Origin: Patescibacteria group bacterium
GTDB lineage: Bacteria > Patescibacteriota > Doudnabacteria > UBA920
Assembly (NCBI GenBank): GCA_036726225.1
Contig: DAIMCS010000002.1
Span: 123,743-187,742 of the forward strand
Reading direction: 5' to 3'
DNA length: 64,000 nt
Of the stretch, positions 27,586 to 53,641 are shown piece after piece. A model generated the notes under the pieces. The model was not told the origin of the DNA. It ran no database searches and saw only the letters and a program-made list of their open reading frames with translations. Each line of letters starts with the position of its first letter. Position 1 is the first letter of the stretch. Both the position numbers and the translations under genes were made by a program.

Positions 27586-27666
27586 CAGATACACACTAAT
27601 TGAATCAGCGGATGAACACGGATCAGTGTTAATCCGTAAATATCAGCGTTTATTAGTTTTACTTAT

Positions 27667-28011
27667 ATGAGGCATCAAAAGAAGAAAAAAATTGGTAAGG
27701 GTATGGATCACCGCAGGAAGCTGCTTCGCACTTTGGCTTCTTCGCTTGTTTTGTATGAAAAAATCCAGACCAATTACGCCAACGGTAAAGCTGCTAAATC
27801 TTACGTTGAAAAAGCCATTACTATTTCTAAAGTTAACTCATTGCATAGCCGCAGGCTTTTGCTTTCTAAGCTTTCGCCCATGGCTGCAAAAAAAGCTCTG
27901 GAAGTTTTAGGGCCTAAATACCAAGAGCGAAAAGGTGGCTATACACGTTTAATTAAACTTAATAATCCCAAAGCGGGAGCTTCTAAGGTAATTTTAGAAT
28001 TAGTAGAATAA
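27667..28011 (+). CDS. rplQ: 50S ribosomal protein L17
   Basis: MRHQKKKKIGKGMDHRRKLLRTLASSL... Confidence 0.9.
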   Translation: MRHQKKKKIGKGMDHRRKLLRTLASSLVLYEKIQTNYANGKAAKSYVEKAITISKVNSLHSRRLLLSKLSPMAAKKALEVLGPKYQERKGGYTRLIKLNNPKAGASKVILELVE

Positions 28012-28063
28012 TAGATTCAGCGTGTTATCAGCTTACTAATCCGCGATAATTCAGCGATTTAAT

Positions 28064-28486
28064 ATGAAATCTCAAATCACTACATTAGCAAATAAAGTCA
28101 GCCGCAAATGGCATCAAGTAGATGTTTCTAAAGAGCCAATGGGCCGCGTGGCAACACATATTGCCAATCTTTTGCGTGGTAAGCATAAGAGAGATTTTAC
28201 CCCGCACGTGGATATGGGCGACTACGTTATTGCCATTAATGCCGGGCATTTAAAACTCACGGGGCGAAAAGTTGCGCAAAAAAAATATTACAGACATTCG
28301 GGATACTTAGGGGGAATTAAATCTACCGCTTTAAAAGATTTAATTATAAAAAACCCGGAAGACGTGCTTAAGCGAGCAGTATTTTCTATGATAGACGATT
28401 TGAAATTTAGGAAGCAAATTATGTCACGTTTAAAAATTGTTAAAGGCGACAAGCACGATTATAAAGTGACAAACAATAATTCATAA
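28064..28486 (+). CDS. rplM: 50S ribosomal protein L13
   Basis: WHQVDVSKEPMGRVATHIANLLRGKHKRDFTPHVDMGDYVIAINA. Confidence 0.9.
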   Translation: MKSQITTLANKVSRKWHQVDVSKEPMGRVATHIANLLRGKHKRDFTPHVDMGDYVIAINAGHLKLTGRKVAQKKYYRHSGYLGGIKSTALKDLIIKNPEDVLKRAVFSMIDDLKFRKQIMSRLKIVKGDKHDYKVTNNNS

Positions 28487-28540
28487 AATAGTTGTCATCC
28501 CGAGCGACCGAAGGGAGTCGAGGGATCTCATCCAAGCATT

Positions 28541-29122
28541 ATGGTAACCAAAACACCCACAACCTCCGCCAAAGGCGGATCCGCCTCTGGCGGAAAATCA
28601 ACAGCCATTAAAGCGCCTCGTAAGCCCAGAGGTGCTGCTAAACCTGTCAAAGCAAAAGAAGTCGAGGAAGTTAAAACTCACGCGACTGCTGTTCATCCGC
28701 ATCCTGTAGAGCATAAACCGGCTCATGCTGAAAAAGGCAGGTATATTTTTGCAACCGGACGCAGAAAAACCGCTATTGCTAACGTCAGACTTTTTGAAGG
28801 CAAAGGCGAACAGGTTGTAAATAAACTTCCGCTTAAAAATTATTTTAACTATTCTTTTTATTTCGACGAAGTCATAAGGCCTCTGGAAGTTACAGGTCTT
28901 GAAGGCAAATATCACTTTACTGCACACATAAATGGCGGCGGCCCGCACGCCCAAGCAACCGCTTTGCGCCACGGTATAAGCATCGCCTTAGGCAGCATTT
29001 CTCAGGAAGTTAGAAAAGTTTTAAAAAAGAACGGCTTTTTAACCCGCGACGACAGAAAGAAAGAACGTAAGAAACCGGGTTTGAAGCGTGCAAGACGTTC
29101 CCCACAGTGGGCCAAGCGTTAA
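28541..29122 (+). CDS. rpsI: 30S ribosomal protein S9 with ~60-aa K/A/P-rich N-terminal extension
   Basis: RYIFATGRRKTAIANVRL...GGGPHAQATALRHGISIAL...KRARRSPQWAKR. Confidence 0.9.
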   Translation: MVTKTPTTSAKGGSASGGKSTAIKAPRKPRGAAKPVKAKEVEEVKTHATAVHPHPVEHKPAHAEKGRYIFATGRRKTAIANVRLFEGKGEQVVNKLPLKNYFNYSFYFDEVIRPLEVTGLEGKYHFTAHINGGGPHAQATALRHGISIALGSISQEVRKVLKKNGFLTRDDRKKERKKPGLKRARRSPQWAKR

Positions 29123-29138
29123 TCATTGCAAATTTAAA

Positions 29139-29166
29139 AAGACCACACTTATGTGCGGTCTTTTTT
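29139..29166. terminator. Hairpin plus T-run between rpsI (+) and the 3' end of rnpB (-)
   Basis: agaccacacttatgtgcggtcttttttt. Confidence 0.6.
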
Positions 29167-29168
29167 AA

Positions 29169-29512
29169 TGCTTTAAGCAAACTCGTAAGCCGAATTCTGT
29201 TTCTAAATAATCATCTATCTGGTCACGTTATTGCTAACGTGATCAAGCAACCTACCTAATTTGGTCTTGCACTCAAGTAAGGATTTGGCCGTTTCACCTT
29301 TAATGTTTCCATCAAAGCTAATCTCTTGCGAGATCCTTGGCGTCTTTCGTACCAAGCGTCTCTGTTCGCACCTCTAGGATTACTCCCGACGGGAATTACC
29401 CGCTACCAGTTTTGATAACTCATATGAGGCTATCAAATAAGTGTTCGGACTTTCCTCCCCAACCGGCATCTTGCGATGCCAATTAAAGCGATTATTCGGT
29501 TTGCTTAAAGCC
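29169..29512 (-). ncRNA. rnpB: RNase P RNA, bacterial type A
   Basis: The minus-strand reading contains GGGGAGGAAAGTCCG (P4 / CR-I), AAAGGTGAAACGGCC (GGUGAAA region) and ACAGAATTCGGCTTACGAG (ACAGAAnCCGGCUUA, CR-V). The P1 stem is gctttaagcaaac / gtttgcttaaagc. Length ~344 nt. Confidence 0.85.
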
Positions 29513-29533
29513 TAAAAAGTTTAACAAAAATAG

Positions 29534-29656
29534 TTGTTTTTGTCAAGGGAAAATGGTATAATAACTACAGAAAATTTTTGAAACACTACAGATAACTACA
29601 GAAAAATAAGCCAGTTACTTCTGTAGTCATCTGTAGATTTTTTTAGCTTCTGTAGT
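29534..29656 (+). promoter_or_regulatory. Promoter (TTGTCA ... extended -10 TGgTATAAT) followed by an array of CTACAGA / TCTGTAG direct and inverted repeats upstream of the initiating glycosyltransferase
   Basis: ggtataataactacagaaaatttttgaaacactacagataactacagaaaaataagccagttacttctgtagtcatctgtagatttttttagcttctgtagtttATG: three CTACAGA then three TCTGTAG. Confidence 0.6.
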
Positions 29657-29658
29657 TT

Positions 29659-31113
29659 ATGAAAAAAACCGAGCTTATTTTTAACCTTATTTCAATTGGT
29701 TTTGACGCTGTTTTTCTGCTCCTGGCGGGGATCGCGTCTTTTTATTTGAGGCAGACGAATTTTGCCACCAGGATAGTCGGCCACCCTGTAAGTTACGATT
29801 TGCAATTTCAGCAATTTATTTCTTCGGCTTACTCCGTGCTTCCGGTTTTGCTTTTAATTTTCGCGGCTTTAGGGCTGTATAATTTAAAAGGTACCCGAAA
29901 GTTTTCTTCCGAAATTGGGAGAATTATGGTCGGCACTTCGCTTAGCTTGCTGCTCATTATTTTAATTTTCTTTTTTAACACCAATTTTTTTGAGGACATA
30001 TTCCCTTCCAGGTTTATAATTCTTGCTGCCTGGGCTTTGGGGACATTGTTTGTCATTTTTGGCAGAACGCTTTTAAAACAGCTGCAAGTGTTAACGTTTA
30101 AAAATAATATAGGTTTGCATAAGTTGGTAATTATAAACGGCGGTCCCGAGCTCGACGTTATTGAAAGTATTTTGAAAAAAAAGGAACATGGTTATGAAAT
30201 TACCGGCGAATTCGCTTTTTCTGAAAATATTTTTGAGCAGCTGGAAAAATTGTATGAAGAAGGCAGGGTGGATGAAATTTTACAGGGCAATTCCAACTTG
30301 AATGACTCTGCAAATTTAAAATTGGTGCAATTTGCGCGTGACAAAGGCTTAAAATTCAGCTTTGTGCCCAATTTGTTTGAGGTGCAAAGAAACATTATTG
30401 AAACTGACAATTTAGACGGTATTCCGCTTATCAGTTTAAAAAATACTCCATTGGACGGCTGGGGCAAAGTGGTAAAGAGAATTATGGATATTATTTTAAG
30501 CGCGGTATGTCTTATTGCTACGTCGCCAATATTTTTAATTGTTTCCGTTCTAATTAAGTTCGATTCGGCCGGTAAAGTTATTTATTCTGCCGTTCGCGGC
30601 GGGCGCGGCAAAAATTTTAAGTTTTACAAATTCAGGAGTATGTACAGCCATTTAAGCATTGGCGAGGACTACGGCGGCCGGCAGGCGGAACAACTTAGAG
30701 AGCAGCTTTGGGAAAAAAATGACCGTGGCGGCAAAGAAGGGCCGTTTTTAAAAATTAAAGACGACCCTCGTGTGACTAAAATTGGCCGTTTTTTGCGCAG
30801 GACCAAACTGGACGAAATCCCGCAGTTTTGGAACGTGTTTGTGGGGGATATGAGTATGGTGGGCCCCAGGGCGCACGTGTTAGATGAGGTCGACAGGTAC
30901 AGGAACCGCTACCCCAGAATGTTTAGCATTAAGCCCGGGACTTTTGGGCTTTCACAAATTGCGCAAATGAACTGGCCGGATTTGCCGTTTGAGGAAGAAA
31001 TTAGGCTGAACACTTTTTATATTGAGAACTGGTCGCTGTGGCTGGATGTAAAAATTTTAGCAAAAAGTTTTTGGCAGCTGTTTTTTGGAAAAAAGCCCAA
31101 GGCAAACTATTAG
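29659..31113 (+). CDS. Undecaprenyl-phosphate hexose-1-phosphate transferase (WbaP/WcaJ-like 'bacterial sugar transferase')
   Basis: N-terminal TM bundle plus C-terminal catalytic domain with IMDIILSAVCLIATSPIFLIV...KFRSM...KDDPRVTKIGRFLRRTKLDEIPQFWNVFVGDMSMVGPR. Confidence 0.85.
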   Translation: MKKTELIFNLISIGFDAVFLLLAGIASFYLRQTNFATRIVGHPVSYDLQFQQFISSAYSVLPVLLLIFAALGLYNLKGTRKFSSEIGRIMVGTSLSLLLIILIFFFNTNFFEDIFPSRFIILAAWALGTLFVIFGRTLLKQLQVLTFKNNIGLHKLVIINGGPELDVIESILKKKEHGYEITGEFAFSENIFEQLEKLYEEGRVDEILQGNSNLNDSANLKLVQFARDKGLKFSFVPNLFEVQRNIIETDNLDGIPLISLKNTPLDGWGKVVKRIMDIILSAVCLIATSPIFLIVSVLIKFDSAGKVIYSAVRGGRGKNFKFYKFRSMYSHLSIGEDYGGRQAEQLREQLWEKNDRGGKEGPFLKIKDDPRVTKIGRFLRRTKLDEIPQFWNVFVGDMSMVGPRAHVLDEVDRYRNRYPRMFSIKPGTFGLSQIAQMNWPDLPFEEEIRLNTFYIENWSLWLDVKILAKSFWQLFFGKKPKANY

Positions 31114-31196
31114 AGTGAACAAGATTGATCAAGATTGACAAGAATGTCATCTAAAATCATGTCAATCTTTTAAATCTTATTTATTCTTGGTCAATT
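31114..31196 (+). repeat. Intergenic repeat-family element abutting the GT4 start (copy D)
   Basis: agtgaacaagattgatcaagattgacaagaatgtcatctaaaatcatgtcaatctt...cttggtcaattATG. Confidence 0.7.
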
Positions 31197-32270
31197 ATGA
31201 GGATCGCATTAGCACATGATTCCCTTACTCAAATGGGCGGGGCGGAAAGAGTGGTAGATGCATTACACGAACTTTTTCCAAACGCGCCTGTTTTTACATT
31301 GGTCTTTGACCCAAAGTTTAAAGAAAAGTATAAAGATTGGGACATTCAAACTTCACCACTACAGTCGCTGTACTTGGTTTTAGGAAAACTGCAATATTGT
31401 TTGCCGCTAATCCCGTGGGCGGTGGACCAGCTAAACTTTAGCGGCTACGATTTAGTTATTTCCTCCAGCTCGGGTTTTGTAAAAAATATCCGTGTGCCAA
31501 AAAATTGTGTGCATATAAATTATTGTCACACCCCAACCAGATTTTTGTGGAGCGATAACGATTATGTCAAACAGGAAGTAAATTTTTTCCTAAGGCCTTT
31601 TGTAAAAGTTTTTTTATCTAAAATGCGGAAGTGGGATTTAATTGGCGCCAAAAGGGTAACGCATTTTATTGCCAATTCAAAAGAAGTCCAGGATAGAATC
31701 CAAAAATATTATCAGCGTACTAGTACGCTGATATACCCGTTTGTGGATTCAAAATTTTGGAATTCGACAACGCCTAAGGGCGATTACTTCTTACTTGCAG
31801 GCAGGCTACATCCCCATAAAAAAAATGACCTTATTGTGGAAGTTTTTAATGACCTAAATATCCCGCTCCACGTTGTGGGTACAGGGAGGCAAGAGGGTTA
31901 TTTGAAGTCGATTGCTAAGCAAAATATTAGCTTTTTGGGCAGAATAAGCGACGAAGCGCTTAGGGATGAGTATAGCGCTGCTTTAGGGTTTATTTACCCA
32001 CAAATTGAAGATTTTGGCCTTATGCCACTGGAAGCCGCCGGCTGCGGCACAGCCACACTGGCTTACGGTGAGGGCGGCGCTAAAGAGACTGTTCTGCCCG
32101 GGGTAACCGGGGAGCTGTTTGACTCTTACAATGAGGAGAAAATTAAGCAGATGGTTTTGTCTTGGGATGCAAAAAAATATCGAACGGATGACTTAAAAAA
32201 CCAGGCAGAGAAATTTAGTAAAGAAAAATTTAAAAGTGAAATGTTAAATTTTGTAAAATCCCATGTCTGA
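31197..32270 (+). CDS. Family 4 glycosyltransferase; contains the 22-bp palindrome ATCAGCGTACTAGTACGCTGAT at 31720-31741
   Basis: GT-B C-terminal motif LAGRLHPHKKNDL...EDFGLMPLEAAGCGTATLAYGEGGAKETV. Confidence 0.85.
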   Translation: MRIALAHDSLTQMGGAERVVDALHELFPNAPVFTLVFDPKFKEKYKDWDIQTSPLQSLYLVLGKLQYCLPLIPWAVDQLNFSGYDLVISSSSGFVKNIRVPKNCVHINYCHTPTRFLWSDNDYVKQEVNFFLRPFVKVFLSKMRKWDLIGAKRVTHFIANSKEVQDRIQKYYQRTSTLIYPFVDSKFWNSTTPKGDYFLLAGRLHPHKKNDLIVEVFNDLNIPLHVVGTGRQEGYLKSIAKQNISFLGRISDEALRDEYSAALGFIYPQIEDFGLMPLEAAGCGTATLAYGEGGAKETVLPGVTGELFDSYNEEKIKQMVLSWDAKKYRTDDLKNQAEKFSKEKFKSEMLNFVKSHV

Positions 32271-33417: not shown

Positions 33418-33418
33418 T

Positions 33419-36679: not shown

Positions 36680-36683
36680 ATGT

Positions 36684-38135: not shown

Positions 38136-38136
38136 A

Positions 38137-40910: not shown

Positions 40911-41204
40911 TTATTTTTTGTAATATTTTTTCCAAATAGTATTAAAGCCGCCGTTTTTGTTAAGCAGTTCTTTCACGCCTCTGTTTATGGTTGCCACTCC
41001 TACTTTTAGGCGTTTGGCAATTTCGCGATGGGGGATTTTTGCTTTAAGCATTTTAACTATTTGCCAGCGTACCGCCATTTCAGAATATTCTGCATGCGAA
41101 AGCAGATCGAACAAAAATTCGCGTAAAAGTTTTTTATCCCGCTCTTTTGAAATTTTACCAATAAGCTCCTCCAGCTCTACTCCGTATTCGTGTTTATACT
41201 TCAT
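40911..41204 (-). CDS. TrpR-like YerC/YecD family DNA-binding protein
   Basis: 97 aa, ...EMAVRWQIVKMLKAKIPHREIAKRLKVGVATINRGVKEL... helix-turn-helix typical of YerC/YecD. Confidence 0.65.
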   Translation of the reverse strand: MKYKHEYGVELEELIGKISKERDKKLLREFLFDLLSHAEYSEMAVRWQIVKMLKAKIPHREIAKRLKVGVATINRGVKELLNKNGGFNTIWKKYYKK

Positions 41205-41217
41205 TTTGTATTGCGTG

Positions 41218-41322
41218 TTAGCGTACTAGTACAGTAGCACGCAGCAGGGTTTTATTTCAAGCTGTGGATAAAAATTATTAAAATAAATAAAATTCGATGT
41301 TTCAGCGTACTAGTACGCTATT
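41218..41322. promoter_or_regulatory. Divergent control region with two copies of the palindromic core AGCGTACTAGTAC(GCT)
   Basis: gttAGCGTACTAGTACagtagcacgc (41218-41243) and ttCAGCGTACTAGTACGCTattgac (41303-41327). A perfect 22-bp version lies inside the GT4 gene at 31720-31741. Confidence 0.5.
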
Positions 41323-41394
41323 GACTAAAGGAATTGGTTCAATGTACGCTAAGTGAAGTTCGTGCAAAAAAATACACCAGTAAGGAGGAAGTAA

Positions 41395-41604
41395 GTGACG
41401 CAGGAAGCTGCTCGTTTGGATACTTGCCCTCAAGGAACATCTTTTTGCTATTGGATGGAACAAAAATCCAGGAGCGTTGAAGGCTCGGTGATTGTGTTTT
41501 GTTCCACCTGTGACAAGGCCAGATGCAAAGAATGCTGGAAACCGGCGGTCCAAGTTGAGGGAACTGACAAATACCGGTGTCCGGACTTATGTAAGGCAAG
41601 CTAG
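41395..41604 (+). CDS. Small Cys-rich (8 Cys) hypothetical protein, GTG start
   Basis: AAGGAGG 7 nt upstream; CxxxxxxC...CxxC...CxxC...CxxxC pattern; two terminator hairpins downstream (41618-41640; 41655-41712). Confidence 0.5.
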   Translation: MTQEAARLDTCPQGTSFCYWMEQKSRSVEGSVIVFCSTCDKARCKECWKPAVQVEGTDKYRCPDLCKAS

Positions 41605-41726
41605 CGGCAAAATCGCCCGGGCTGAGAGCAATCTCAGCCTGTCTTTTATTTGAAAATAAAAATAACCGTGAACGGAATGCAAGCAGTTGGCTGCTCTTTT
41701 CCGTTCACGGTTTTTGCTTTTGGGCT

Positions 41727-41953
41727 TTAGGGTTTTGCTTTCCTGATGGGAGCCAGGAGGAACTTTATGTCGGTCTCCTCGCCCTCAATTTTGTAGCGCT
41801 TGGCTTGTTTAGTCCGGAGACTTGTAATGGCCACACCTTTTTTGTAAAACTGTGCCGCCTTGCCGGTCTTTAGGTCGTGCCTTGTAAATTTTGATCCGCC
41901 TTTGATCAAAACCCGTGTGGCTATCGATGAGGTCACTAGCCGTTCAATTACCA
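41727..41953 (-). CDS. Small basic hypothetical protein (75 aa; strong-SD start MVIERL)
   Basis: gaAGGAGGGct ATG on the minus strand; the ORF-track N-terminal extension lacks an RBS. Confidence 0.5.
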
Positions 41954-42088
41954 TAGCCCTCCTTCTTAAGTTTGGGAACACAATGATGCTAACTTTACCA
42001 TAGGTACTTTTAGTTGTAAATAAAAAAACCGCCTTAAGCGGGAAGAACAGGGACGCAAGAGGGGTGCCTCTTGCGTCCCTTACATGGT

Positions 42089-42292
42089 TTAGGCTTCAAC
42101 TAAGCATTCCCAGCGTTTTGGGCCCGAAATTTTGTATATCCAATTGCAATCGGACCATACTGCTGTGAGAAATCGTCCGTCGGCAAGTACTACCGAACCT
42201 TCTGTGTTCTGGGCCCCTTTTAGGGTCTCCTGGGTAACGCCCGCAATTTCCAGGGCTTGGAATCGTTTAATCCAGGTCGAATCGTCGTCCAT
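42089..42292 (-). CDS. Small hypothetical protein (67 aa)
   Basis: ORF with downstream terminator hairpin gggacgcaagaggggtgcctcttgcgtccc (42043-42072); weak RBS. Confidence 0.35.
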   Translation of the reverse strand: MDDDSTWIKRFQALEIAGVTQETLKGAQNTEGSVVLADGRFLTAVWSDCNWIYKISGPKRWECLVEA

Positions 42293-42474
42293 AATTACCT
42301 CGTGGGATTGGGGTTATGTGGTGTTTCGTCGCCTTAGCTATGGCATCCTCCTTCAAAGCGCACTCTACCAAAAATTGCCTTTTTAGGCAAGGTTTTAAGC
42401 TTTTCAGGCAGGGCTTTTTTTGTTATAATCAAACAGTTATCCAGTACTGCCTATAGACTATTTACTACTAATTT

Positions 42475-45198
42475 ATGTCTTTTTTAAGCAATTTATTTAG
42501 CGGACAAAAGAACCCTTTGGACAGGTTTTCCAAAGAGCTTTTGGAAGTTAACAGTTACAGGGAAGAAGTGGAAAAGCTCACACAGGAGCAAATGAGAAAA
42601 GAAGTGACAAGTTACAAGTCACAAGTAACAAGTTTAGAAACTGACAAAGAGATTTTTTTAAAGCTTCAGCAAATTGCTCCCAGGGTTTTTGCCCTAATCC
42701 GCGAAGCCGCAAAAAGGTCCATTGGCCAGTTCCATTACGACGTCCAGCTCGCCGGCGGTTTTGTTTTGTCCAGCGGGAAAATTGCTGAAATGAAAACCGG
42801 AGAAGGAAAAACTCTAACTGCGACTTTGCCGCTCGGGCTTTTTGCGCTTGCAGGCAAAGGCGCGCATTTGGTCACAGTAAACGACTATTTAGCCAGGTGG
42901 CAAGCCTCTCTTATGGGCCCGGTTTTCCATTATCTTGGACTTTCTACTTCATCCATTCAGCACGAAGCCTCGTTTTTGTACGACTCAAGCTACCAGCCAG
43001 AACAGGAAGAAATTACCAAGCTCGAAGGCGAGACCCAGGGTTTGGTAATGGATGTAAAACATATGCGGCCGGTTAAACGCAAAGAAGCCTACGCCGCGGA
43101 TATAACTTACGGCACCAACAACGAATATGGCTTTGACTATTTGCGCGACAATATGGCGCAAAACGTTTCGCAAATAGTTCAGCGCGAATTGTTTTTTGCA
43201 ATTGTCGACGAAGTTGACTCTATTTTAATAGATGAAGCGCGTACCCCTCTTATCATTAGCATGCCGGACGCAGAGCCAACCAGCAAGTATTACGATTTTG
43301 CCAAATTAGTTGAGCGGTTAGACGAAAGCACAGACTATATAGTTGACGAAAAGCACAAATCAGCATCGCTGACCGATGCGGGCATTAATAAAATTGAAAG
43401 CATTTTAAAAGTGCCGAACATTTACGACACTTCCAAAGGCGTTACTACCATCCACCATATTGAACAGGCTTTAAGGGCCAGGACTTTGTTTAAAAAAGAC
43501 AGGGACTATGTGGTGCGTGAAGGCGAAATTATTATTGTAGACGAATTTACCGGGCGTTTAATGTTTGGCCGCAGGTATTCAGAAGGACTGCACCAGGCAA
43601 TTGAGGCAAAAGAAAACGTAAAAATCCAGCAGGAAAGCAAAACCCTTGCCACCATAACCTTCCAAAATTTATTTAGGCTTTACAAAAAACTTTCGGGTAT
43701 GACCGGAACGGCCAAAACCGAGGAAGAGGAGTTCTTTAAAATTTATCAGCTTACAGTTGAGCAAATCCCAACCCATAGGCCAATGGTAAGGGCAGACGGC
43801 GCGGATATGATTTATAAAACTGAGGAAGCCAAGTTTAAAGCTATTGCAAAAGAAGTAAAAGAACGCCACAAAAAAGGCCAGCCGGTTTTAATTGGTACGG
43901 TAAGCATTGCCAAAAACGAAATGCTGGCAGAAGTTTTAAAGAGCGAAGGGCTGACTTTTGAAATTTTAAACGCTAAAAACCACGAACGTGAGGCGCATAT
44001 TATTTCCCAGGCCGGCCGCTTGGGGCAAATTACTTTGGCCACTAACATTGCCGGTCGCGGTGTGGACATTTTGCTCGGCGGCAACCCCATAGACCAGCAG
44101 GAGGCCAAAGCTGTGCGAGATGCGGGTGGTCTGCACATTTTGGGCACGGAGCGCCACGAATCGCGCCGTATAGACAACCAGCTTCGCGGGCGCGCCGGCC
44201 GTCAGGGTGACCCGGGGTCTTCGCAGTTTTTTGTTTCTATGGAAGATGACCTTATGCGCCTTTTTGGCGGCGAGCGGATGAAGTCCTTAATGACCACTTT
44301 GGGCCTGCCGGACGACCAGCCAATTGAAGCAAAATTGGTTTCGCGGTCTATTGAGTCTGCGCAAAAGAAAATTGAAGGCTTAAACTTTGACACCAGAAAA
44401 CACGTGCTTGAATTTGACGACGTATTAAACCACCAGCGCAACGTAATTTACAAAAGGCGCCGCGCGTTTTTGGCAGACACAGAAGAAAGCAAACAGGGGG
44501 ATTTGAAAAAAGAAATTTTGGAAATGGTGGAAAAGGAAATTGGGGAGCTGGTGACAACTAATTTAAATGCGTTAGACGAACTTGGCAATAAAAAAGAGGA
44601 CTGGGATAATTTGTTTAAAACTGCAAACAGCATAATTCCTGTTGATCAGAATCTTATTGCTAAAATAAAAGAAGAAGCAAAAAATGCGGCAGACAGGGAA
44701 TTTGCAGTTGCCGATGTGCTATATAAAGCAGCGGCTGATTTTTGGGAAAAGAAAGAGCAGGAAATGGGCAGGGAGGTTTTTGAAGGCGCGCAACGGTTTG
44801 TGGCTTTGCAGTCTTTAGACAACCTTTGGATGGAGCATTTGGACACTATGGACCATTTGCGCGACTCGGTAAGGCTCCGCGGCTATGGCCAAAGGGATCC
44901 GCTTGTTGAGTACAAAAAAGAAGGGCATTTAATGTTCCAGCGTTTGACCGCAGAAATAAACAAGCAAATTGTCTTTACTATTTTCCACATAAGTGTCCAA
45001 GCCAAGCCACAGCAACAGGTCCAGCCAATGAATTTGAATTTATCGAGTCAATCAGCGAATCAGTCAATCAGCGAATCAGCTGATAAAAGTGTGGGCAGAA
45101 ACGAGCCTTGCCCCTGCGGCAGCGGGAAGAAATGGAAAAAATGCGGGATGATAAATTCCCAAGAACATCAAACGAATATATCTAAAACTAATCACTAA
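42475..45198 (+). CDS. secA: Preprotein translocase ATPase SecA
   Basis: DVQLAGGFVL, MKTGEGKTLTATLP (Walker A), DEVDSILIDEARTPLIIS; C-terminal zinc motif CPCGSGKKWKKCG. Confidence 0.95.
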   Translation: MSFLSNLFSGQKNPLDRFSKELLEVNSYREEVEKLTQEQMRKEVTSYKSQVTSLETDKEIFLKLQQIAPRVFALIREAAKRSIGQFHYDVQLAGGFVLSSGKIAEMKTGEGKTLTATLPLGLFALAGKGAHLVTVNDYLARWQASLMGPVFHYLGLSTSSIQHEASFLYDSSYQPEQEEITKLEGETQGLVMDVKHMRPVKRKEAYAADITYGTNNEYGFDYLRDNMAQNVSQIVQRELFFAIVDEVDSILIDEARTPLIISMPDAEPTSKYYDFAKLVERLDESTDYIVDEKHKSASLTDAGINKIESILKVPNIYDTSKGVTTIHHIEQALRARTLFKKDRDYVVREGEIIIVDEFTGRLMFGRRYSEGLHQAIEAKENVKIQQESKTLATITFQNLFRLYKKLSGMTGTAKTEEEEFFKIYQLTVEQIPTHRPMVRADGADMIYKTEEAKFKAIAKEVKERHKKGQPVLIGTVSIAKNEMLAEVLKSEGLTFEILNAKNHEREAHIISQAGRLGQITLATNIAGRGVDILLGGNPIDQQEAKAVRDAGGLHILGTERHESRRIDNQLRGRAGRQGDPGSSQFFVSMEDDLMRLFGGERMKSLMTTLGLPDDQPIEAKLVSRSIESAQKKIEGLNFDTRKHVLEFDDVLNHQRNVIYKRRRAFLADTEESKQGDLKKEILEMVEKEIGELVTTNLNALDELGNKKEDWDNLFKTANSIIPVDQNLIAKIKEEAKNAADREFAVADVLYKAAADFWEKKEQEMGREVFEGAQRFVALQSLDNLWMEHLDTMDHLRDSVRLRGYGQRDPLVEYKKEGHLMFQRLTAEINKQIVFTIFHISVQAKPQQQVQPMNLNLSSQSANQSISESADKSVGRNEPCPCGSGKKWKKCGMINSQEHQTNISKTNH

Positions 45199-45223
45199 CA
45201 ACTAATTACTATTCACTAACCCT

Positions 45224-45532: not shown

Positions 45533-45539
45533 GAACAAA

Positions 45540-45616
45540 TGTCATTGCGATCCGCCAAAGGCGGAGAAGCAATCCAAAATAAGATTGCTTCGTCGCTATC
45601 GCTCCTCGCAATGACA
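45540..45616. mobile_element. 77-bp MITE-like element with perfect 11-bp TIRs TGTCATTGCGA / TCGCAATGACA and an internal hairpin
   Basis: Read directly; the TIR is related to TGTCATCCCGA of the 15499 element. Confidence 0.75.
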
Positions 45617-45623
45617 GAAATGT

Positions 45624-46166
45624 ATGCTTAAATTTATTACCGGAAATAAAGGTAAATTTAAAGAAATAGAAAAGTCTTTCCTGCCGTTAAAGTTAAAGCA
45701 GGAGAATATTGATTTGGAGGAAATTCAAGAAATAGACGTCGGTAAAATTATAAGACACAAAGTTCAGCAGGCTTTAAAACATCATGAAGCTAATTTTTTT
45801 GTGGAAGACACGAGTTTGTATTACGAGGCTTTAAAAAACAAATTGCCGGGGCCGTTAATAAAATGGTTTTTAGACGCACTCAAGCCCAAGGGTTTGTATG
45901 AAATGGCAAAAAAGCTCGGAAATACCAAGGTTGAACTTAAAAGCGTGGTGGCTTATGTGGACCAAAAAAAGAAGGTCCATTTTTTTGAAGCATCAACTAA
46001 GGGCATATTGGTAAAGCCAATAGGGACTAACGGTTTTGGACTCGATCCGATTTTTAAACCTTCAGGGTATCAAAAGACTTTAGCGCAAATGTCAGTTTTC
46101 GAGAGGCCAAAGTTTAGCCCTCGCGCAAAAGCAGTCGCAAAGCTTAAAAAATTTCTGTTACAATAA
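45624..46166 (+). CDS. rdgB: Non-canonical purine NTP pyrophosphatase (Ham1/RdgB family)
   Basis: FITGNKGKFKEIE and FFVEDTSL motifs. Confidence 0.8.
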   Translation: MLKFITGNKGKFKEIEKSFLPLKLKQENIDLEEIQEIDVGKIIRHKVQQALKHHEANFFVEDTSLYYEALKNKLPGPLIKWFLDALKPKGLYEMAKKLGNTKVELKSVVAYVDQKKKVHFFEASTKGILVKPIGTNGFGLDPIFKPSGYQKTLAQMSVFERPKFSPRAKAVAKLKKFLLQ

Positions 46167-46198
46167 AGTAAGGTAATCGTTATAGCAATATATTAGAT

Positions 46199-48790: not shown

Positions 48791-49401
48791 AGTTAGGAAT
48801 ATTCATTTTTATTTTGGCAATAGTCATCCCCGGAAAGCTTTTGGCGCAGGGGAGCCTTGAACCGTTAAGCATTGCACAACAAAAAACCATTGATTCCGAC
48901 AGCGACGGATTAAGCGATTATTACGAAATTTATGTTTACCATACTTCCATTAGCAACCCTGATACTGACCATGACGGTTTTTTAGACGGAGGCGAAGTAC
49001 AATTCGCTTTTGACCCTAACAAAAACGGGAATGACAAATTACAAAAAGAAATTGTAGTCACACTCGCTGACCAGAGTTTAAGTTATAAGCTGGGGGATTA
49101 CATTGTTGGTACTTTTAAAATTTCCAGCGGCAAAAAATATTTTTCCACACCATTGGGAGAGTTTTCGGTTTTGAAAAAAAGGCCGATTGTGGATTATGTA
49201 GGTCTTGGGTATAGCTATCCTAAAACCAAATGGAACTTAATGTTTAGGCCGGGCAGAGTGGGGAACTTTTATATTCACGGGGCATATTGGCACAACAATT
49301 TTGGCACGCCCATGAGCCATGGGTGTGTAAACGTTTCTTACGCTAATATGGAAGCGCTCTATAATTGGGCGGAAGTTGGCACAAAAGTCGTCATAAAATA
49401 A
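48772..49401 (+). CDS. L,D-transpeptidase (YkuD fold) with N-terminal signal peptide and Asp-rich Ca-binding-like segment
   Basis: Catalytic motif SHGCVNVS near the C-terminus; DSDSDGLSDYYE...DTDHDGFLDGGE. Confidence 0.8.
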   Translation: MVEKFMKLGIFIFILAIVIPGKLLAQGSLEPLSIAQQKTIDSDSDGLSDYYEIYVYHTSISNPDTDHDGFLDGGEVQFAFDPNKNGNDKLQKEIVVTLADQSLSYKLGDYIVGTFKISSGKKYFSTPLGEFSVLKKRPIVDYVGLGYSYPKTKWNLMFRPGRVGNFYIHGAYWHNNFGTPMSHGCVNVSYANMEALYNWAEVGTKVVIK

Positions 49402-49459
49402 AATATGGCAATTAGCAGCTTGGTCTGGTAAAATACTAGTATCTTGATGGGAGGGCGGT

Positions 49460-49615
49460 ATGCTAACAGATCCTGTTTGCGGTATGGGAGTCAGTGATGA
49501 AACAATGTTTAATTCGGTCCACGAAGGCTCGACGTACTTTTTTTGCTCTCAAGACTGTATGGATGAGTTTGAGCAAAACCCGGAGGAATATGAAACTGAA
49601 TCTGGCCACAAATGA
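49460..49615 (+). CDS. Unannotated 51-aa YHS/TRASH-type metal-binding domain protein (below ORF-track cut-off)
   Basis: Translation MLTDPVCGMGVSDETMFNSVHEGSTYFFCSQDCMDEFEQNPEEYETESGHK shows the DPVCGM...Y.FCS..C...F YHS signature. GGGAGGGCGG SD upstream and a terminator (49627-49667) downstream. Confidence 0.7.
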   Translation: MLTDPVCGMGVSDETMFNSVHEGSTYFFCSQDCMDEFEQNPEEYETESGHK

Positions 49616-49743
49616 GGCAGCCGTAAGCGGGAAGCAGCGTTTAGCTGCTTCCCGCACTTTCTTTTTTAAGCATTGCCAAAACCGCTGGTTTTGCTATAAT
49701 ATGCCAAGTATAAATCTGAGCTGTAAACATCGACCCCCTCATC

Positions 49744-49795
49744 TGTCCTGCCAAAGGCAGGACATCTTCTCCCGCTAGGGGAGAAGATAATAATG
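49744..49795 (+). repeat. Twin-hairpin mini-element (tgtcctgccaaaggcaggaca + cttctcccgctaggggagaag + ATAATAATG); its terminal ATG is the annotated secD start
   Basis: Same architecture as 38767-38815 in murB. Confidence 0.75.
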
Positions 49796-51319
49796 AATGC
49801 TATGCATCCAAAACTTAAGATATTTCTGCCGCTATTTGCCATTTTAATTATTACCGCAGCGGCTGTCTGGATAAACCTGCCGCAAGGTTCAAAAATCAAC
49901 TTAACCAAGCTTAAAATCCCTTACAATAAGGAGTTTAGGGTGCGTTTAGGTTTGGACTTGCAGGGCGGTAGCCGTTTGGTTTACCAGGCCGACTTTAAAG
50001 ATATAAAATCGGAAGACCAGGCAGACGCGCTTAACGCCATTCGCGACACAGTTGAGCGCAGGGTTAACAGTTTTGGTGTCAGCGAACCACAAGTGGTGGT
50101 AACCGGCACGGACAGAATTATTGTTGAGCTTCCCGGCATAAAAGATATTAATGAGGCAATAAACCAAATTGGTCAAACACCGTTTTTGGAATTTAAACTG
50201 GCAAACCCAAATCCCACTTCGGCGTCTTTGGATGAGTCGGGCCAGGCAGTTATTAATTCAGATGACCAGTGGATCGCAACCGGACTTTCGGGCAAGCAGC
50301 TTTCCAAAGCAACTGTAGATTTCCAGCAGGGAGCAGGCATAAGCAGCCAGGTGGTAGTGCGCCTGCAATTTAACGACGAAGGTAAAAAACTTTTTTCCGA
50401 AATTACATCGGCTAATATTGGTAAACAAATTGCCATATTTTTAGACGGCCAAATACTTTCGGCCCCCACCGTGCAAACCGCAATTACTGACGGCGTGGCG
50501 ATTATTAGCGGCAACTTTAAAATTGAGGATGCCAAAGAATTAGCAACGCGCTTAAACAGCGGCGCTTTGCCGGTGCCCATTAAACTTATTTCGCAAGAAA
50601 CCGTGGGCGCAACTTTGGGCAAGGAATCGGTCCAGAAATCCGTGGCCGCGGGGCTTATTGGTTTGGTAATGATAGTGCTGTTTATGCTAATTTATTACCG
50701 TCTGCCCGGGCTGCTTGCCGCCATAGCTTTGCTTATTTACGCCGTTGTTTCGTTTGCCGTCTTTAAGATCGGCATATCATTTACCGCTGTGGTTTTAGTC
50801 GGCTTGTTTTTCTTTTTAGGTTTAACCGTAAGCACGTGGTTTGGCGGCCTGGCCCTGTTAAGTTATATTGGGTTGATATTTTTAGGGGGGCTTTCCCCGG
50901 TGACTCTGACTCTAGCCGGCATTGCAGGTTTCATTTTGTCCATTGGTATGGCAGTAGACGCCAACATTTTAATTTTTGAAAGGTTAAAAGAAGAAATTCG
51001 CGCCGGTAAAGAAATCCACAAAGCAGTGGATGACGGTTTTGCCAGGGCATGGCTCTCCATCCGCGACTCTAACGTGTCCAGCCTTATTACCACCGCAATT
51101 TTATATGTTTTCGGCACCCCGAGCATAAAAGGTTTTGCAGTTACCTTGGGAGTCGGTATTTTAATTTCTATGTTTACAGCAATTACAGTCACCCGCACGT
51201 TTTTGAAAATTTTTGTGGGCAACACAATTTTAAGCCATCCTTGGCTGTTTGGAGTAGGTAGAGTAAAATCTAACAGCCAAGATCCAAATACCAATCAATC
51301 TCCAAATATTAATATTTAA
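49793..51319 (+). CDS. secD: Protein translocase subunit SecD
   Basis: Large periplasmic domain plus C-terminal 6-TM region; immediately upstream of secF. Confidence 0.9.
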   Translation: MNAMHPKLKIFLPLFAILIITAAAVWINLPQGSKINLTKLKIPYNKEFRVRLGLDLQGGSRLVYQADFKDIKSEDQADALNAIRDTVERRVNSFGVSEPQVVVTGTDRIIVELPGIKDINEAINQIGQTPFLEFKLANPNPTSASLDESGQAVINSDDQWIATGLSGKQLSKATVDFQQGAGISSQVVVRLQFNDEGKKLFSEITSANIGKQIAIFLDGQILSAPTVQTAITDGVAIISGNFKIEDAKELATRLNSGALPVPIKLISQETVGATLGKESVQKSVAAGLIGLVMIVLFMLIYYRLPGLLAAIALLIYAVVSFAVFKIGISFTAVVLVGLFFFLGLTVSTWFGGLALLSYIGLIFLGGLSPVTLTLAGIAGFILSIGMAVDANILIFERLKEEIRAGKEIHKAVDDGFARAWLSIRDSNVSSLITTAILYVFGTPSIKGFAVTLGVGILISMFTAITVTRTFLKIFVGNTILSHPWLFGVGRVKSNSQDPNTNQSPNINI

Positions 51320-51370
51320 AATTTTTATCTTGTTTGGTTTTTGTGATTTGATATTTGTTACTTACTAAAT

Positions 51371-52264
51371 ATGTTCAACACTTTAAAATACTACAAACTT
51401 TGGTTTATTATTTCCGGCCTAATTTTGCTTTTTGGTATTGTCTCTCTTTCGGTCTACGGTCTTAAGTTAGGCATAGATTTTACCGGCGGAACTGAAATTC
51501 AGCTCCAATTTAACAACCAGGTGGATATAGGCAAAGTCAGGGAGGCTGCCACTTCCCAAAACATAGGCCACTTCCAAATCCAAACCACCGGCGAAAATGG
51601 GCTTATAATAAAAACCCCGCCTATTGAAAAAGAACAACACGACAAACTGCTTGAAGAAATAAAAAAACAGGCCGGCGATTTTTCCGAGATCCATTATGAC
51701 TCCATTGGCCCGCTTATTGGCAGTGAGTTGAAAAAAAATGCCTTTTTGCAATTATTGTTTGTGTCTTTAGGTATTATTTTTTACATTGGTTATGCTTTCC
51801 GCAAAGTAAGCAAGCCCGTGACTTCCTGGCGCTTTGGCGGAGCGGCAATTATTGCGCTTTTCCACGACTTACTTTTTGTGCTCGGCGTCTTTTCCCTCCT
51901 GGGCCACTATAAGGGCGTGGAAATTGACAGTTTATTTGTGACCGCTATGTTAACCGTGTTGGGTTTTTCAGTTCATGACACAATTGTTGTCTTTGACCGA
52001 ATTCGAGAAAATTTAAGGGTTTACCCGGGACAGGGGATAGAGTTTGTGGTCAACCATAGTATTGCCCAGACTTTAGTCAGGTCACTAAATACTTCACTCA
52101 CAGTTTTGTTCGTGTTATTTAGCTTACTATTGTTTGGCGGAGAAACCATAAGATATTTTGTCCTGGCGTTGTTTATAGGTATTATAGTCGGAACTTATTC
52201 ATCGATATTCATAGCCAGTCCGGTTTTAGTACTTTGGCAAAAATGGAAAACCAGGCAGTTGTAA
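51371..52264 (+). CDS. secF: Protein translocase subunit SecF
   Basis: LGIDFTGGTEIQ motif; 6 TM. Confidence 0.9.
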   Translation: MFNTLKYYKLWFIISGLILLFGIVSLSVYGLKLGIDFTGGTEIQLQFNNQVDIGKVREAATSQNIGHFQIQTTGENGLIIKTPPIEKEQHDKLLEEIKKQAGDFSEIHYDSIGPLIGSELKKNAFLQLLFVSLGIIFYIGYAFRKVSKPVTSWRFGGAAIIALFHDLLFVLGVFSLLGHYKGVEIDSLFVTAMLTVLGFSVHDTIVVFDRIRENLRVYPGQGIEFVVNHSIAQTLVRSLNTSLTVLFVLFSLLLFGGETIRYFVLALFIGIIVGTYSSIFIASPVLVLWQKWKTRQL

Positions 52265-52291
52265 AAACCCCCTAAAAATAGGGGGTTTTTT
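52264..52291 (+). terminator. Terminator hairpin aaaaccccctaaaaatagggggtttttt after secF
   Basis: G5/C5 stem plus T-run, followed by taataat. Confidence 0.75.
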
Positions 52292-52444
52292 AATAATCAG
52301 AAATCAGGCGCAGGGACTATTTACAAAACTCCTTTTAAATAAGACATTATTCGCCCATTTAATTGACAATAATTATAATTTTGTGCTATACTATGGGAAA
52401 TTAATTTTTTCACTTAATTTCCTTTTTCCAGCTTTTTAAATTTT

Positions 52445-53530
52445 ATGGGCATCCTCGACACCATTATTCATACCAAACAAACCGAAAGTTTAAGCCAATT
52501 TAGCCCGTCTGACGTGGTTAAAGAGGTTTTGGAATTGCTTAAAGAGCGTGACAGGAAAATTTTAATAAACCGTTACGGCCTTGAAGGCGGAGAAATAAAA
52601 ACTTTGGCTTCCATTGGCCAGGAGCATAATTTAACCCGCGAACGCGTAAGGCAAATTGAAAAAGATTTAATTAAGAATTTAAAGAAAACCAGTTTGCAAA
52701 AAAAGACATTTGCAGACGCTAAAGATTTTTTGCTGAACATTATTACTGAACACGGCAGGATTATAGCCGAAGAAAGCCTGCTTTTGCATTTGAGCATAAA
52801 AGAGCAAAAAGAACGCAATGCGCTTATTTTTATTTTGCATTTAATTGAAGAGTTGGACCATTTTATCCACCAAAACTATAAAAAGTCCTGGGTGAACGTG
52901 CTTTTTAAAGAAGATTTATTGCACAGTTTTTCCGACGAAAGCAAGAAAGTTTTAGGTGACCAAAATAAGCCCTTGCCGGCGGACGAGTTTTTGGAACATT
53001 TTAAGCAAACCCAGTTTTACCAGGAGCACAAAGAAGACTTAACTGACAAAATTGTTTTAAATTATTTGGAATTGACCGTCCACATACAAAAAAATGTGTT
53101 TGGCCATTGGGGACTTTCTTTATGGAAAGAAGTTAAGCCCAAAGACGTTGGTGACAAAGCTTATTTGGTCATGAAGCACCATAAGCAGCCCGAACATTAC
53201 GCCCAAATTACCGAAATGATTAACAAAGCCAAGTTTGACGCGCGTCCCGCTTACAAAGAAACTGTGCATAATGAACTTATTAAAGATCCGCGTTTTATTT
53301 TAATTGGCCGCGGCATTTACGCCCTTTCTGAATGGGGCTACAAACCCGGCGTAGTTGCCGACGTAATTGCTGAAATTTTAAAGCATTCCGGCCAGCCCGT
53401 GCCAAAAGACAAAATTATTGAAGAGGTATTAAAACGCCGAATGGTGAAAAAGAACACCATATTAGTCGGCCTTTCCAACAAAAAGCTGTTTAAAAAGGTA
53501 GGTAAAAACGCTTACGCATTAGTGGCCTAA
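52445..53530 (+). CDS. Sigma-70 region-4-like HTH domain protein with large uncharacterised C-terminal domain
   Basis: ILINRYGLEGGEIKTLASIGQEHNLTRERVRQIEKDLIKNLKK resembles the sigma factor region 4 HTH; no regions 2 or 3 recognisable. Confidence 0.55.
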   Translation: MGILDTIIHTKQTESLSQFSPSDVVKEVLELLKERDRKILINRYGLEGGEIKTLASIGQEHNLTRERVRQIEKDLIKNLKKTSLQKKTFADAKDFLLNIITEHGRIIAEESLLLHLSIKEQKERNALIFILHLIEELDHFIHQNYKKSWVNVLFKEDLLHSFSDESKKVLGDQNKPLPADEFLEHFKQTQFYQEHKEDLTDKIVLNYLELTVHIQKNVFGHWGLSLWKEVKPKDVGDKAYLVMKHHKQPEHYAQITEMINKAKFDARPAYKETVHNELIKDPRFILIGRGIYALSEWGYKPGVVADVIAEILKHSGQPVPKDKIIEEVLKRRMVKKNTILVGLSNKKLFKKVGKNAYALVA

Positions 53531-53641
53531 GTCCGCTGAATTAACGCGGATAGGAACGCCGAAGAATCGCGGAAAAAATTTTCAGCGTGTGATCAGCGTC
53601 CTCATCAGCGACTCATCTGCGGTATCAGAAATAAAAACGAA

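Follow-up and report, generated by a model that had tools for sequence, protein, structure and literature searches.

Introduction

The tryptophan repressor TrpR of Escherichia coli and other gammaproteobacteria (sites at trpO, aroH and trpR) reads palindromic operators with GTACTAGT/ACTAGTAC around CTAG, and two such centres lie 8 bp apart in a site of 18-20 bp. One site lies over the regulator's own promoter, and repression is joined to a leader with Trp codons and a terminator. The published TrpR motif is TGTAcTnGTnnACnAgTACA (PMC9413887) and E. coli trpO reads CGAACTAGTTAACTAGTACGCAAG (PMC11748629). YerC/YecD, the HisR of Firmicutes, is a TrpR-family protein of fewer than 100 aa with palindromic operators of about 20 bp and frequent autoregulation; its motif is cacTTTAnnnnnnTAAAgtg and its regulon consists of his genes and histidine transporters (PMC9413887). 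Here, a stretch of 64 000 nucleotides from a Patescibacteria group bacterium (contig DAIMCS010000002.1, positions 123 743 to 187 742; hereafter the window) was analysed. It carries a gene for a 97-aa TrpR-family regulator, clusters of the heptamer (A/T)TCAGCG (WTCAGCG) between genes, and a perfect palindrome, ATCAGCGTACTAGTACGCTGAT, which is very probably the DNA binding site of this small tryptophan-repressor-like protein in an uncultured ultra-small bacterium of the candidate phyla radiation (CPR).

Two kinds of described element resemble the heptamer clusters. Repetitive extragenic palindromes and the bacterial interspersed mosaic elements built from them (REP/BIME), like BOX elements, are intercistronic within operons, consist of imperfect palindromes of several families per genome, are modular with variable copy number and fixed polarity, and may affect mRNA stability. 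RNase III processing hairpins (phage T7 early region, rRNA, ribosomal-protein operons) are long stems with internal loops between the cistrons of one transcript. In the literature searched, no paper tied CPR bacteria to TrpR, or to REP-like or intergenic repeats. The original prediction, made from the letters of the window, had joined palindrome and heptamers into a single regulon, possibly bound by a YerC/TrpR-like protein. In doing so it merged two unrelated features, a TrpR-type operator and intergenic short-word repeats. The joint explanation that fits best, and that we consider probable, is that the palindrome is the operator of the TrpR-family repressor and that the TCAGCG clusters belong to a separate family of intercistronic short-word repeats.

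Results

A TrpR-family regulator and its predicted operator

The regulator matched the Pfam Trp_repressor profile (PF01371) at 6.9e-18 and 64.9 bits (gathering cut-off 27) over profile positions 2-85 of 88. It scored 39.7 bits with the NCBIfam TrpR equivalog TIGR01321 (cut-off 67.25) and 27 bits with YerC/YecD TIGR02531 (cut-off 42.2). Its helix VGVATINRGVKEL aligned to AGIATITRGSNSL of E. coli TrpR with an hhalign probability of 95%, and identity was about 26% across 65 aligned residues. TrpR chains of the PDB (1trr, 1tro) matched at E about 6e-6, and entries of the YerC type (3frw, 3kor, 3g1c) scored slightly above E. coli TrpR, both types being similar. Homologues numbered 42, the named ones coming from metagenome-assembled genomes (MAGs) of Doudnabacteria or Patescibacteria. 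Because the protein falls under both equivalog cut-offs, its PDB relatives of both types are similar and its site is TrpR-like rather than HisR-like, it was filed as TrpR-family; the earlier label 'YerC-like' is imprecise. By its sequence the regulator is a TrpR-family member with a predicted TrpR-like DNA specificity, not a YerC.

Three exact copies of a 10-bp core, GTACTAGTAC, were found in the window, two upstream of the regulator gene (at -28 and -112) and one inside a gene for a GT4 glycosyltransferase (Table 1). The last is the centre of the palindrome, which had been placed at 31720-31741; it is real, 22 bp long (24 bp counting the flanking T/A, 31710-33), misplaced by 9 bp in that description and situated within an open reading frame (ORF). 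The core it was said to share with the paired sites in the regulator's promoter is indeed exact in each of the three. For the 16-mer AGCGTACTAGTACGCT, of which chance predicts 0.06 matches, there are perfect copies at 31714 and 41304 and one at 41220 that differs in 2 positions. Extended, the motif reads approximately T[CT]A-RY-GTACTAGTAC-RY-T[AG]A. It has the palindromic symmetry, the CTAG centre and the GTACTAGT/ACTAGTAC elements of a TrpR-type operator, elements present in both the published TrpR motif and E. coli trpO, but one CTAG centre rather than two. As GTACTAGTAC matches a half-site of the TrpR consensus, the CPR site resembles half a TrpR operator turned into a symmetric site about one CTAG. 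It is unlike the HisR site, and no his genes or histidine transporters lay beside any operator site examined.

Conservation was assessed in related loci (L numbers) gathered by exact-protein look-ups and one scan of GTDB species genomes. The operator comparison set comprised 23 related genome loci with regulator identities of 45-73%. The exact core lies upstream of the regulator gene in 18 of them (19 with one mismatch allowed), mostly at -25 to -45 (13/23) and -81 to -140 (16/23) from the regulator start. An alignment of 14 upstream regions had a mean column identity of 35%, its invariant columns being mostly the two cores, short TA/TAA flanks and the GTCAA (TTGAC on the opposite strand) beside the distal core; the distal context tcaatagcGTACTAGTACgctgaaac is identical in L050, L051 and L052. 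About 39 exact cores occur in about 125 kb of regulator loci, against roughly 0.1 expected (estimated as 125,000/4^10), and none in the 44 loci from related contigs that formed the rplQ comparison set. Across the lineage, as far as these loci represent it, the alignments show an invariant core that keeps two set positions ahead of the regulator gene. The natural candidate to bind the palindrome sites is the TrpR-family protein, given the position kept in 18/23 genomes, the likeness to the published TrpR consensus and the overlap with putative promoter elements; the part of the original prediction that made it the binder of the heptamer arrays as well was not supported. Palindrome and regulator together are predicted to make up a conserved pair of operator and repressor of the TrpR type in a CPR lineage, a kind of system that is already known.

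A second assembly of the same genome, 100% identical to the window and reaching 8.9 kb further right (L077), has a fourth exact AGCGTACTAGTACGCT at 20651-20666, about 8.2 kb right of the window end, placed between a hicA-like gene and an 83-aa ORF that converges on it; a short ORF and then a bidirectional terminator-like hairpin come after it. Three adjacent spacers around the hicA-like gene (L077 20006-20030, 20600-20625 and 21085-21110) share the motif (A)TGGGGACATGNCCCAT(T), possibly the operator of another regulator. Between the two operators of the window, just upstream of the putative -35 of the regulator promoter, stands a perfect DnaA-box consensus, TTATCCACA (41263-41271, minus strand). 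It or a one-mismatch variant is in the same place in 11 of the 14 aligned genomes, and the window as a whole has more DnaA boxes with no or 1 mismatch than expected (26 against 13.4).

The copy inside the glycosyltransferase gene

The palindrome encodes part of YYQRTSTLIY, its codons being CAG CGT ACT AGT ACG CTG. Among 34 glycosyltransferase orthologues, 5 have (R/C)TST at the site and the other 29 mostly residues of the RDSE type. The DNA of the four other (R/C)TST orthologues has the exact core at the same codons in L073, L074 and L076; L075 encodes RTST by different codons and has no core. In L074, a Cys codon (TGT) replaces a nearly invariant Arg and GTACTAGTAC is preserved. L073 is on the same contig as the regulator locus L003, and the L074 protein is also on a contig with locus L050. 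The core kept in L073, L074 and L076 and the Arg to Cys change that saves it in L074 argue that in some of the genomes the DNA sequence itself is under constraint. A promoter scan found no convincing promoter near the site; speculatively, the copy could serve as a roadblock or a titration site. On the minus strand, the 24-bp palindrome (31710-31733) is followed by ATATTTTT and scores like an intrinsic terminator, which could stop antisense transcription in the gene.

Promoters, leader peptides and the proposed control

The proximal operator, at its conserved place, overlaps the -10 hexamer of a putative regulator promoter, and a putative divergent promoter with a degenerate -10 adjoins the distal one (Table 1). 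Equivalents exist in relatives: TTGCCT-17-TACTGT before the proximal operator in L003, and TTGACA-17-TATAAT, pointing away from the regulator, at the divergent place (e.g. L001). With this arrangement, the proximal copy, over the -10 and start of the regulator's own promoter, would cause autorepression, and the distal copy, abutting the divergent -35, would block RNA polymerase there.

An ORF of 15-33 codons with two adjacent Trp codons (e.g. MNKYSTNSAAVVWWTLLNRKA, MSKAVIKYTVSAWWTLPSFAKFVV) lies about 40-50 nt downstream of the distal operator in 14 related loci. In the leader sequences inspected, a recurring hairpin (CTTTGC...GCAAAG) follows the Trp codons, and most loci then have a GC hairpin and a T-run. 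In several of these loci the 5' arm of the terminator contains CCACC, complementary to UGGUGG codons. The Trp-Trp ORF and terminator of the relatives look like a candidate classical Trp attenuator in CPR bacteria, sharing with trpL the short two-Trp ORF, the conserved hairpin just past the Trp codons, the GC hairpin with T-run and an operator-controlled promoter upstream; the peptides carry Trp-Trp, not the His runs that a HisR system would suggest. In L005 and L054 the leader is followed by a SerK/SbnI-N-like ORF (about 135 aa) and a TrpB2 gene (NF009057, 2.4e-213), with a further GTACTAGTAC operator about 47 bp before the SerK/SbnI-like ORF; L059 and L065 have homologous small ORFs and then PALP-domain TrpB2-like genes in the same place. 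Such a set suggests TrpR-type control of an operon that salvages indole and phosphoserine. A TrpB2 operon stands behind the leader in three genomes only, which, with downstream genes that are otherwise variable and mostly have no assigned role, sets the arrangement apart from trpL. Given the Trp-Trp leaders and SerK-like/TrpB2 operons of the relatives, the likely co-repressor is L-tryptophan.

In this genome, a 69-aa Cys-rich ORF is likely to be the transcript of the operator-controlled divergent promoter; it belongs to no Pfam or NCBIfam family and has no homologue in loci L001-L076. The same holds for two small minus-strand ORFs (84 and 67 aa) between it and secA. Their segment replaces the leader and small-ORF region of the relatives and may for this reason be an insertion. 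A match to the RF04312 'trpB motif' at 41620-41722 was rejected: it scored 33 bits against a gathering threshold of 59, consists of two generic terminator-like hairpins and is missing in relatives that have trpB2.

TCAGCG clusters in the window

WTCAGCG occurs 21 times in the window against 11.2 expected, a count reached in 2 of 100 shuffles, and the hexamer TCAGCG 29 times against 17. Five adjacent same-strand TCAGCG pairs lie within 45 nt (0.07 expected; at most 1 in any of 300 shuffles), and 9 of the 29 hits fall in intergenic DNA, which makes up 6.7% of the window (p=8e-5). Measured against shuffled sequence and for positional bias, as had been proposed, the clustering and the intergenic excess are non-random. 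When each spacer was tested for repetition of any word, the spacer at 53.5 kb reached p=0.005, those before rplQ and rplM p=0.79 and p=0.66; support for the latter two comes from the shared word and from orthologous arrays in relatives.

All three ATCAGYG copies announced before rplQ are present (ATCAGCG at 27604 and 27642, ATCAGTG at 27622). The hairpin there has a minimum free energy (MFE) of -17.1 kcal/mol (z -2.4), and the spacer resembles elements in L022 and in L012/L013/L020 (TCAGCGttta...). Before rplM, TTCAGCG is exact at 28016 and 28050, and the supposed third copy is a mismatched TATCAGCT at about 28026-28033; the spacer has no significant fold (z -1.2). Of four copies described before the gene at 53642, those at 53581, 53592 and 53604 are exact and the one at 53615 is the variant ATCTGCG; an inverted CGCTGAA at 53534 had been missed. 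The resulting interrupted hairpin begins 3 nt past the upstream stop codon and ends 20 nt before the ATG. Its arms are predicted to pair word by word (MFE -31.4 kcal/mol; z -1.5 sense, -2.8 antisense), Tandem Repeats Finder (TRF) gives period 11, and the second assembly has the identical sequence. It is, to judge from its words, a degenerate member of a TCAGCG/CGCNGA family, of which the rplQ and rplM spacers keep the TCAGCG arm only.

The tandem reported near the end of secA is a real repeat, at 45046-45079. It was rejected as part of the motif, being a 16-bp coding duplication unrelated to operator and arrays and not a leader element. Its copies are read in different frames (QSANQ / SISES), so the gain of 16 bp must be compensated nearby, or the linker tolerates a change of frame.

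Intercistronic word repeats across the lineage

When all spacers of the window were listed, many had a repeated word of their own, often with its reverse complement behind it. As a rule an element consists of 2-4 copies of one 6-8-nt word, spaced by about 7-14 nt, and then an equal number of reverse-complement copies; typically it begins a few nt past a stop codon and stops 3-20 nt short of the next ATG, where a Shine-Dalgarno sequence is usually missing. Strict word hairpins (two or more copies of a word, then two or more of its complement) numbered 41 regions in 307 kb of window and related loci against 5.3 expected, with about 25 different words. Arm spacings were equal in 11 of 32 hairpins, and mirrored spacers were 63% complementary; the correlation of arm spacings over all 32 was uninformative (r about 0) because degenerate words were skipped, so that the excess of equal spacings is the usable figure.

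In the 44 rplQ loci, the spacers flanking rplQ have the same build with other words (TAGCGT, TTTAGC, TACGAA, CGCGAA, ACAAAT and others), and several relatives have no spacer there (about 10 nt). TCAGCG arrays recur in L007, L011, L026 and L063. Complete CGCTGA x4 / TCAGCG x4 hairpins lie on both sides of rplQ in L026; before rplM, TCAGCG x3-4 with the 'tact(t/a)a' spacer of the window occurs in L007, L011 and L026, the CGCTGA x4 arm in L026 only. L012, L013 and L020 have the variant ACGCNG / CAGCGT. Families recur at non-orthologous genes, since the CTACAGA x3 / TCTGTAG x3 hairpin precedes a sugar-transferase gene in the window and secA in L057 (684-770, minus strand), in the same polarity; it follows directly on a TATAAT box, and 4-9 nt separate its end from the start codon. 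The (A/T)TCAGCG clusters are one family among many such lineage-wide repeats and not operator half-sites, and the arrays expand, contract and decay quickly.

A dispersed family on AAGATTGA/TCAATCTT is built as AAGATTGA ... CAAGAATG-loop-CATGTCAATCTT, with at least 4 window copies of one polarity and another in L012 (1220-1300). The GC-rich palindrome CTGCCTGCCGGCAGGCAGG stands in two window spacers (16048-16067 and 25815-25834) and in L055 (3410-3447) as a CTGCCT/AGGCAG word hairpin. In the rplM-rpsI spacer (28487-28540), gtcatcccgagcgaccgaagggagtcgagggatc resembles an insert, ggtcaccccgagcgaagtcgaggggtg, in the loops of both rplQ-flanking L026 hairpins and is another small dispersed palindrome.

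At gathering thresholds, a scan with Rfam 15 found RNase P only and no family matching the spacer elements. A permissive scan gave weak miRNA-precursor-like and amino-acid-operon-leader-like hits at 22300-31300, all below gathering, and none at 53400-53700. The literature searches found no description of the word repeats. They resemble REP/BIME and BOX elements in the features listed above, and differ in having a 6-8-nt word 2-4 times per arm, variable spacers, many word families instead of one consensus and an exact stop-to-start span. Intergenic location and dyad symmetry hold for 53533-53622 and many other spacers; TCAGCG itself has only 3 copies in 64 kb, two of them one-armed. The likeness to RNase III hairpins lies in predicted long stems with internal loops between cistrons; their word periodicity sets the elements apart from the RNase III sites that are known.

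Gene content of the window

The window has about 42% GC and its genes are nearly all on the plus strand. Named homologues of its proteins come from MAGs of Candidatus Doudnabacteria or Patescibacteria, some of whose assembly records are labelled 'uncultured Candidatus Saccharibacteria'. The names rpoA, rplQ, rplM, rpsI and secA given earlier are correct. The gene at 53642 adjoins a VirD4/TraD-like gene and encodes 450 aa with no NCBIfam or Pfam-A match; its database record carries a DUF8128 hit. An RNase P RNA gene lies between rpsI and a polysaccharide cluster, antisense to the surrounding genes.

Table 1 Positions of the features discussed, in window coordinates unless a locus number is given
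Feature	Position	Strand	Description
Regulator gene	40911-41204	-	97-aa TrpR-family helix-turn-helix protein, Pfam PF01371
Proximal operator	41217-41238		core 41223-41232, -19 to -28 from regulator ATG; exact core
Distal operator	41301-41322		core 41307-41316, -103 to -112; exact 16-mer
Intragenic operator copy	31711-31732		core 31717-31726; codons Q-R-T-S-T-L of GT4 glycosyltransferase gene; exact 22-bp palindrome
GT4 glycosyltransferase ORF	31197-32270
Putative regulator promoter	41231-41260	-	TTGAAA (41260-41255), 18-nt spacer, TACTGT (41236-41231); read from sequence
Putative divergent promoter	41321-41350	+	TTGACT, 18-nt spacer, TACGCT; directly downstream of distal operator
Cys-rich ORF	41395-41650	+	69 aa; Shine-Dalgarno aaggagg; terminator-like hairpin 41618-41641 and T-run
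Small ORF	41727-41981	-	84 aa
Small ORF	42089-42292	-	67 aa
Trp-Trp leaders	L001, L003, L050-L055, L059, L060, L062, L064, L065, L068		about 130-300 nt upstream of trpR-like gene, opposite strand
SerK-like/TrpB2 segments	L005 101-1820, L054 601-2320, L059 35-1232, L065 999-2706
rpoA-rplQ spacer array	27604-27648	+	ATCAGCG, ATCAGTG, ATCAGCG; 28-nt hairpin 27609-27636 between/overlapping words
rplQ-rplM spacer array	28016-28056	+	TTCAGCG, variant ATCAGCT, TTCAGCG; direct repeats only; ends 7 nt before rplM ATG
53.5-kb interrupted hairpin	53533-53622	+	CGCTGA, CGCGGA, CGCCGA, CGCGGA, then TCAGCG x3, TCTGCG; 11-12-nt period
secA duplication	45046-45079	+	AGTCAATCAGCGAATC x2.1, perfect 16 bp; linker before SEC-C zinc motif; TRF 100% matches, score 68
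Word repeat	5147-5206		GCGGAA x3
Word repeat	22397-22489		GTATAAGG/CCTTATAC
Word repeat	24551-24630		CTTACTCACTTATTTA x2
Word repeat	25235-25315		GTTGAAAGT/ACTTTCAAC
Word repeat	26517-26646		ATTCGAA(A)T about x5
Word repeat hairpin	29564-29656		CTACAGA x3 then TCTGTAG x3
Dispersed spacer family	18606-18702, 24748-24844, 25787-25850, 31114-31196		AAGATTGA/TCAATCTT
rpoA	26647-27585
rplQ	27667-28011
rplM	28064-28486
rpsI	28541-29122
RNase P RNA	29170-29507	-	bacterial class A, 122 bits
secA	42475-45198

Discussion

The system resembles that of E. coli TrpR in its Pfam family, in its recognition helix (VATINRG here, IATITRG in E. coli), in a palindromic CTAG-centred operator and in a site that here is predicted to lie over the regulator's own promoter; in the relatives, a leader with terminator and the tie to a tryptophan gene (TrpB2) are added. 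It differs in the low identity and the score under the TrpR equivalog cut-off, in the one-centre 10-bp core and in its CPR hosts, where the putative targets are the salvage TrpB2, small ORFs without assigned function and the intragenic glycosyltransferase site.

Several observations weigh against the account given here. The consensus promoter scan called neither of the two window promoters, the hexamers of which are weak. The segment 41320-41650 contains no Trp-Trp pair, the Cys-rich ORF standing in the leader's place, and no trpB2 was seen in the window. The co-repressor and the contact between protein and site are deduced from sequence. The single CTAG centre, against two in E. coli, means that the binding geometry may differ. 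Five of the 23 relatives have no exact site (one has a one-mismatch core), and 3 of those 5 keep the leader. The site is missing from most glycosyltransferase orthologues, and its role there is a guess. As to the repeats, folding energies and G-U pairs of 59 spacers, compared between sense and antisense, gave no sense-strand advantage and hence nothing that would speak for selection on the RNA. A single hairpin family could be aligned (L012, L013, L020); 1 of its 23 pairs was compensatory, the family being too conserved for covariation to show. In predicted stability, the array folds surpass shuffled sequence by a modest margin only (z -1.2 to -2.8). The rplQ and rplM arrays of the window and the rplM arrays of L007 and L011 have no complementary arm; with one-armed arrays before rplM in all three, a role as hairpin arm leaves the persistence of the direct words unexplained. 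A protein that contacts the DNA from one side would be served by the 11-12-bp period as well.

What the repeats do, if anything, can be read in several ways. A serious possibility, though we think it rather unlikely, is that they have no function and arose by replication slippage and template switching in quasi-palindromes, or as selfish dispersed palindromic repeats, and are tolerated in spacers. Their fast turnover between genomes, the many relatives without any spacer, higher-order duplications such as (TCAGCGaccaaTCAGCGtactta)x2 in L026, decayed or one-armed copies, strand-symmetric folds with no G-U bias and weak z-scores, and the 16-bp slippage duplication even within secA all fit such an origin. 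It is harder to reconcile with words that are better conserved than the spacers between them, with elements that run precisely from stop to start codon, with the occupation of every spacer of the rpsM-rpsI ribosomal-protein cluster in a streamlined genome, and with the same families, in the same polarity, at non-orthologous genes of different genomes. If the arrays act at all, they would most likely do so as stem-loops with interruptions in polycistronic mRNA, where they might affect the stability of segments, be processed in the manner of RNase III substrates, or couple a downstream start without Shine-Dalgarno sequence to upstream termination. That they form an undescribed, selected class in Doudnabacteria-like CPR bacteria, stop-to-start stem-loops drawing on a small recurring 6-8-nt vocabulary and organising polycistronic mRNA expression by processing, stability or translational coupling, is unlikely enough to be offered only tentatively.

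A different protein, for instance a response regulator of the OmpR/PhoB type or a protein that binds centromeres or iterons, could also read direct repeats at one per turn of the helix and regulate rplQ, rplM and the gene at 53642 through the TCAGCG arrays. The 11-12-bp spacing, the direct-only arrays conserved before rplM in the window, L007 and L011, and one word shared by three spacers of one genome speak for it, and the missing sense-strand signature is compatible with a role at the DNA level. We consider it improbable all the same: about 25 other words in the same architecture would call for as many specific proteins in genomes of roughly 1 Mb, the orthologous spacers of many relatives are absent (about 10 nt) or use other words, and complete copies consist of words and then their reverse complements with matching spacing.

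The single regulon of the original prediction, in which (A/T)TCAGCG is the recognition unit of one TrpR/YerC-like protein at the palindrome and at the rplQ, rplM and 53642 arrays, is very improbable. The palindrome and the two regulator-side sites are one motif; the heptamers before the three genes lie outside it. TCAGCG does flank 2 of the 3 operator copies of the window, gcTGAAAC/TTTCAGC is the commonest distal-site flank in the closest relatives, and the arrays stand just upstream of start codons. But the likeness of arrays to operator is limited to a variable 6-bp flank: GTACTAGTAC is invariant, and relatives show TCAAC, TCACT, TTAGC or CTACT beside it. At the glycosyltransferase site, the codons for Tyr and Gln dictate TCAG, and L073, L074 and L076 have all lost the symmetry of the right flank. 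The arrays have no GTAC/CTAG core, nor have the rplQ loci of relatives, though several of those 44 carry TCAGCG arrays. In L063 an operator without TCAGCG flank and a separate CGCTGA x2 / TCAGCG x3 hairpin lie about 900 bp apart, and neighbouring and orthologous spacers show the same architecture made from unrelated words. That the GTACTAGTAC palindromes are no protein operators at all, but restriction-modification targets (ACTAGT, the SpeI site, and GTAC lie within them) or terminators in the form of small hairpins, as the terminator-like score of the 24-bp palindrome with ATATTTTT, the copy between convergent gene ends beyond the window and a 26-bp perfect palindrome at an operator copy near gene ends in L052 might suggest, is scarcely credible given two fixed core positions from the regulator start across 45-73% protein identity, adjoining conserved -35/-10 elements, the match to the published TrpR motif and no T-run after either promoter copy.

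Read as an operator next to a separate repeat family, the locus has consequences for a group in which almost nothing is known about regulation. The pair of a 97-aa TrpR-type protein and GTACTAGTAC has a conserved geometry and is directly testable, and keeping the operator apart from the TCAGCG arrays avoids a false regulon call on ribosomal-protein genes. CPR bacteria have been reported to be unable to synthesise amino acids; together with this, the candidate attenuator (Trp-Trp leader) and the SerK-like/TrpB2 salvage operon of the relatives suggest tryptophan sensing in these episymbiont-like bacteria. The operator copy in a cell-envelope glycosyltransferase gene hints that tryptophan supply may be linked to surface polysaccharide synthesis. 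The word-repeat architecture is widespread in the spacers of these streamlined genomes and has no description in the Rfam scans and the literature searched; if the tentative reading of the repeats as a selected class were true, they would organise gene expression in genomes with very few regulators.

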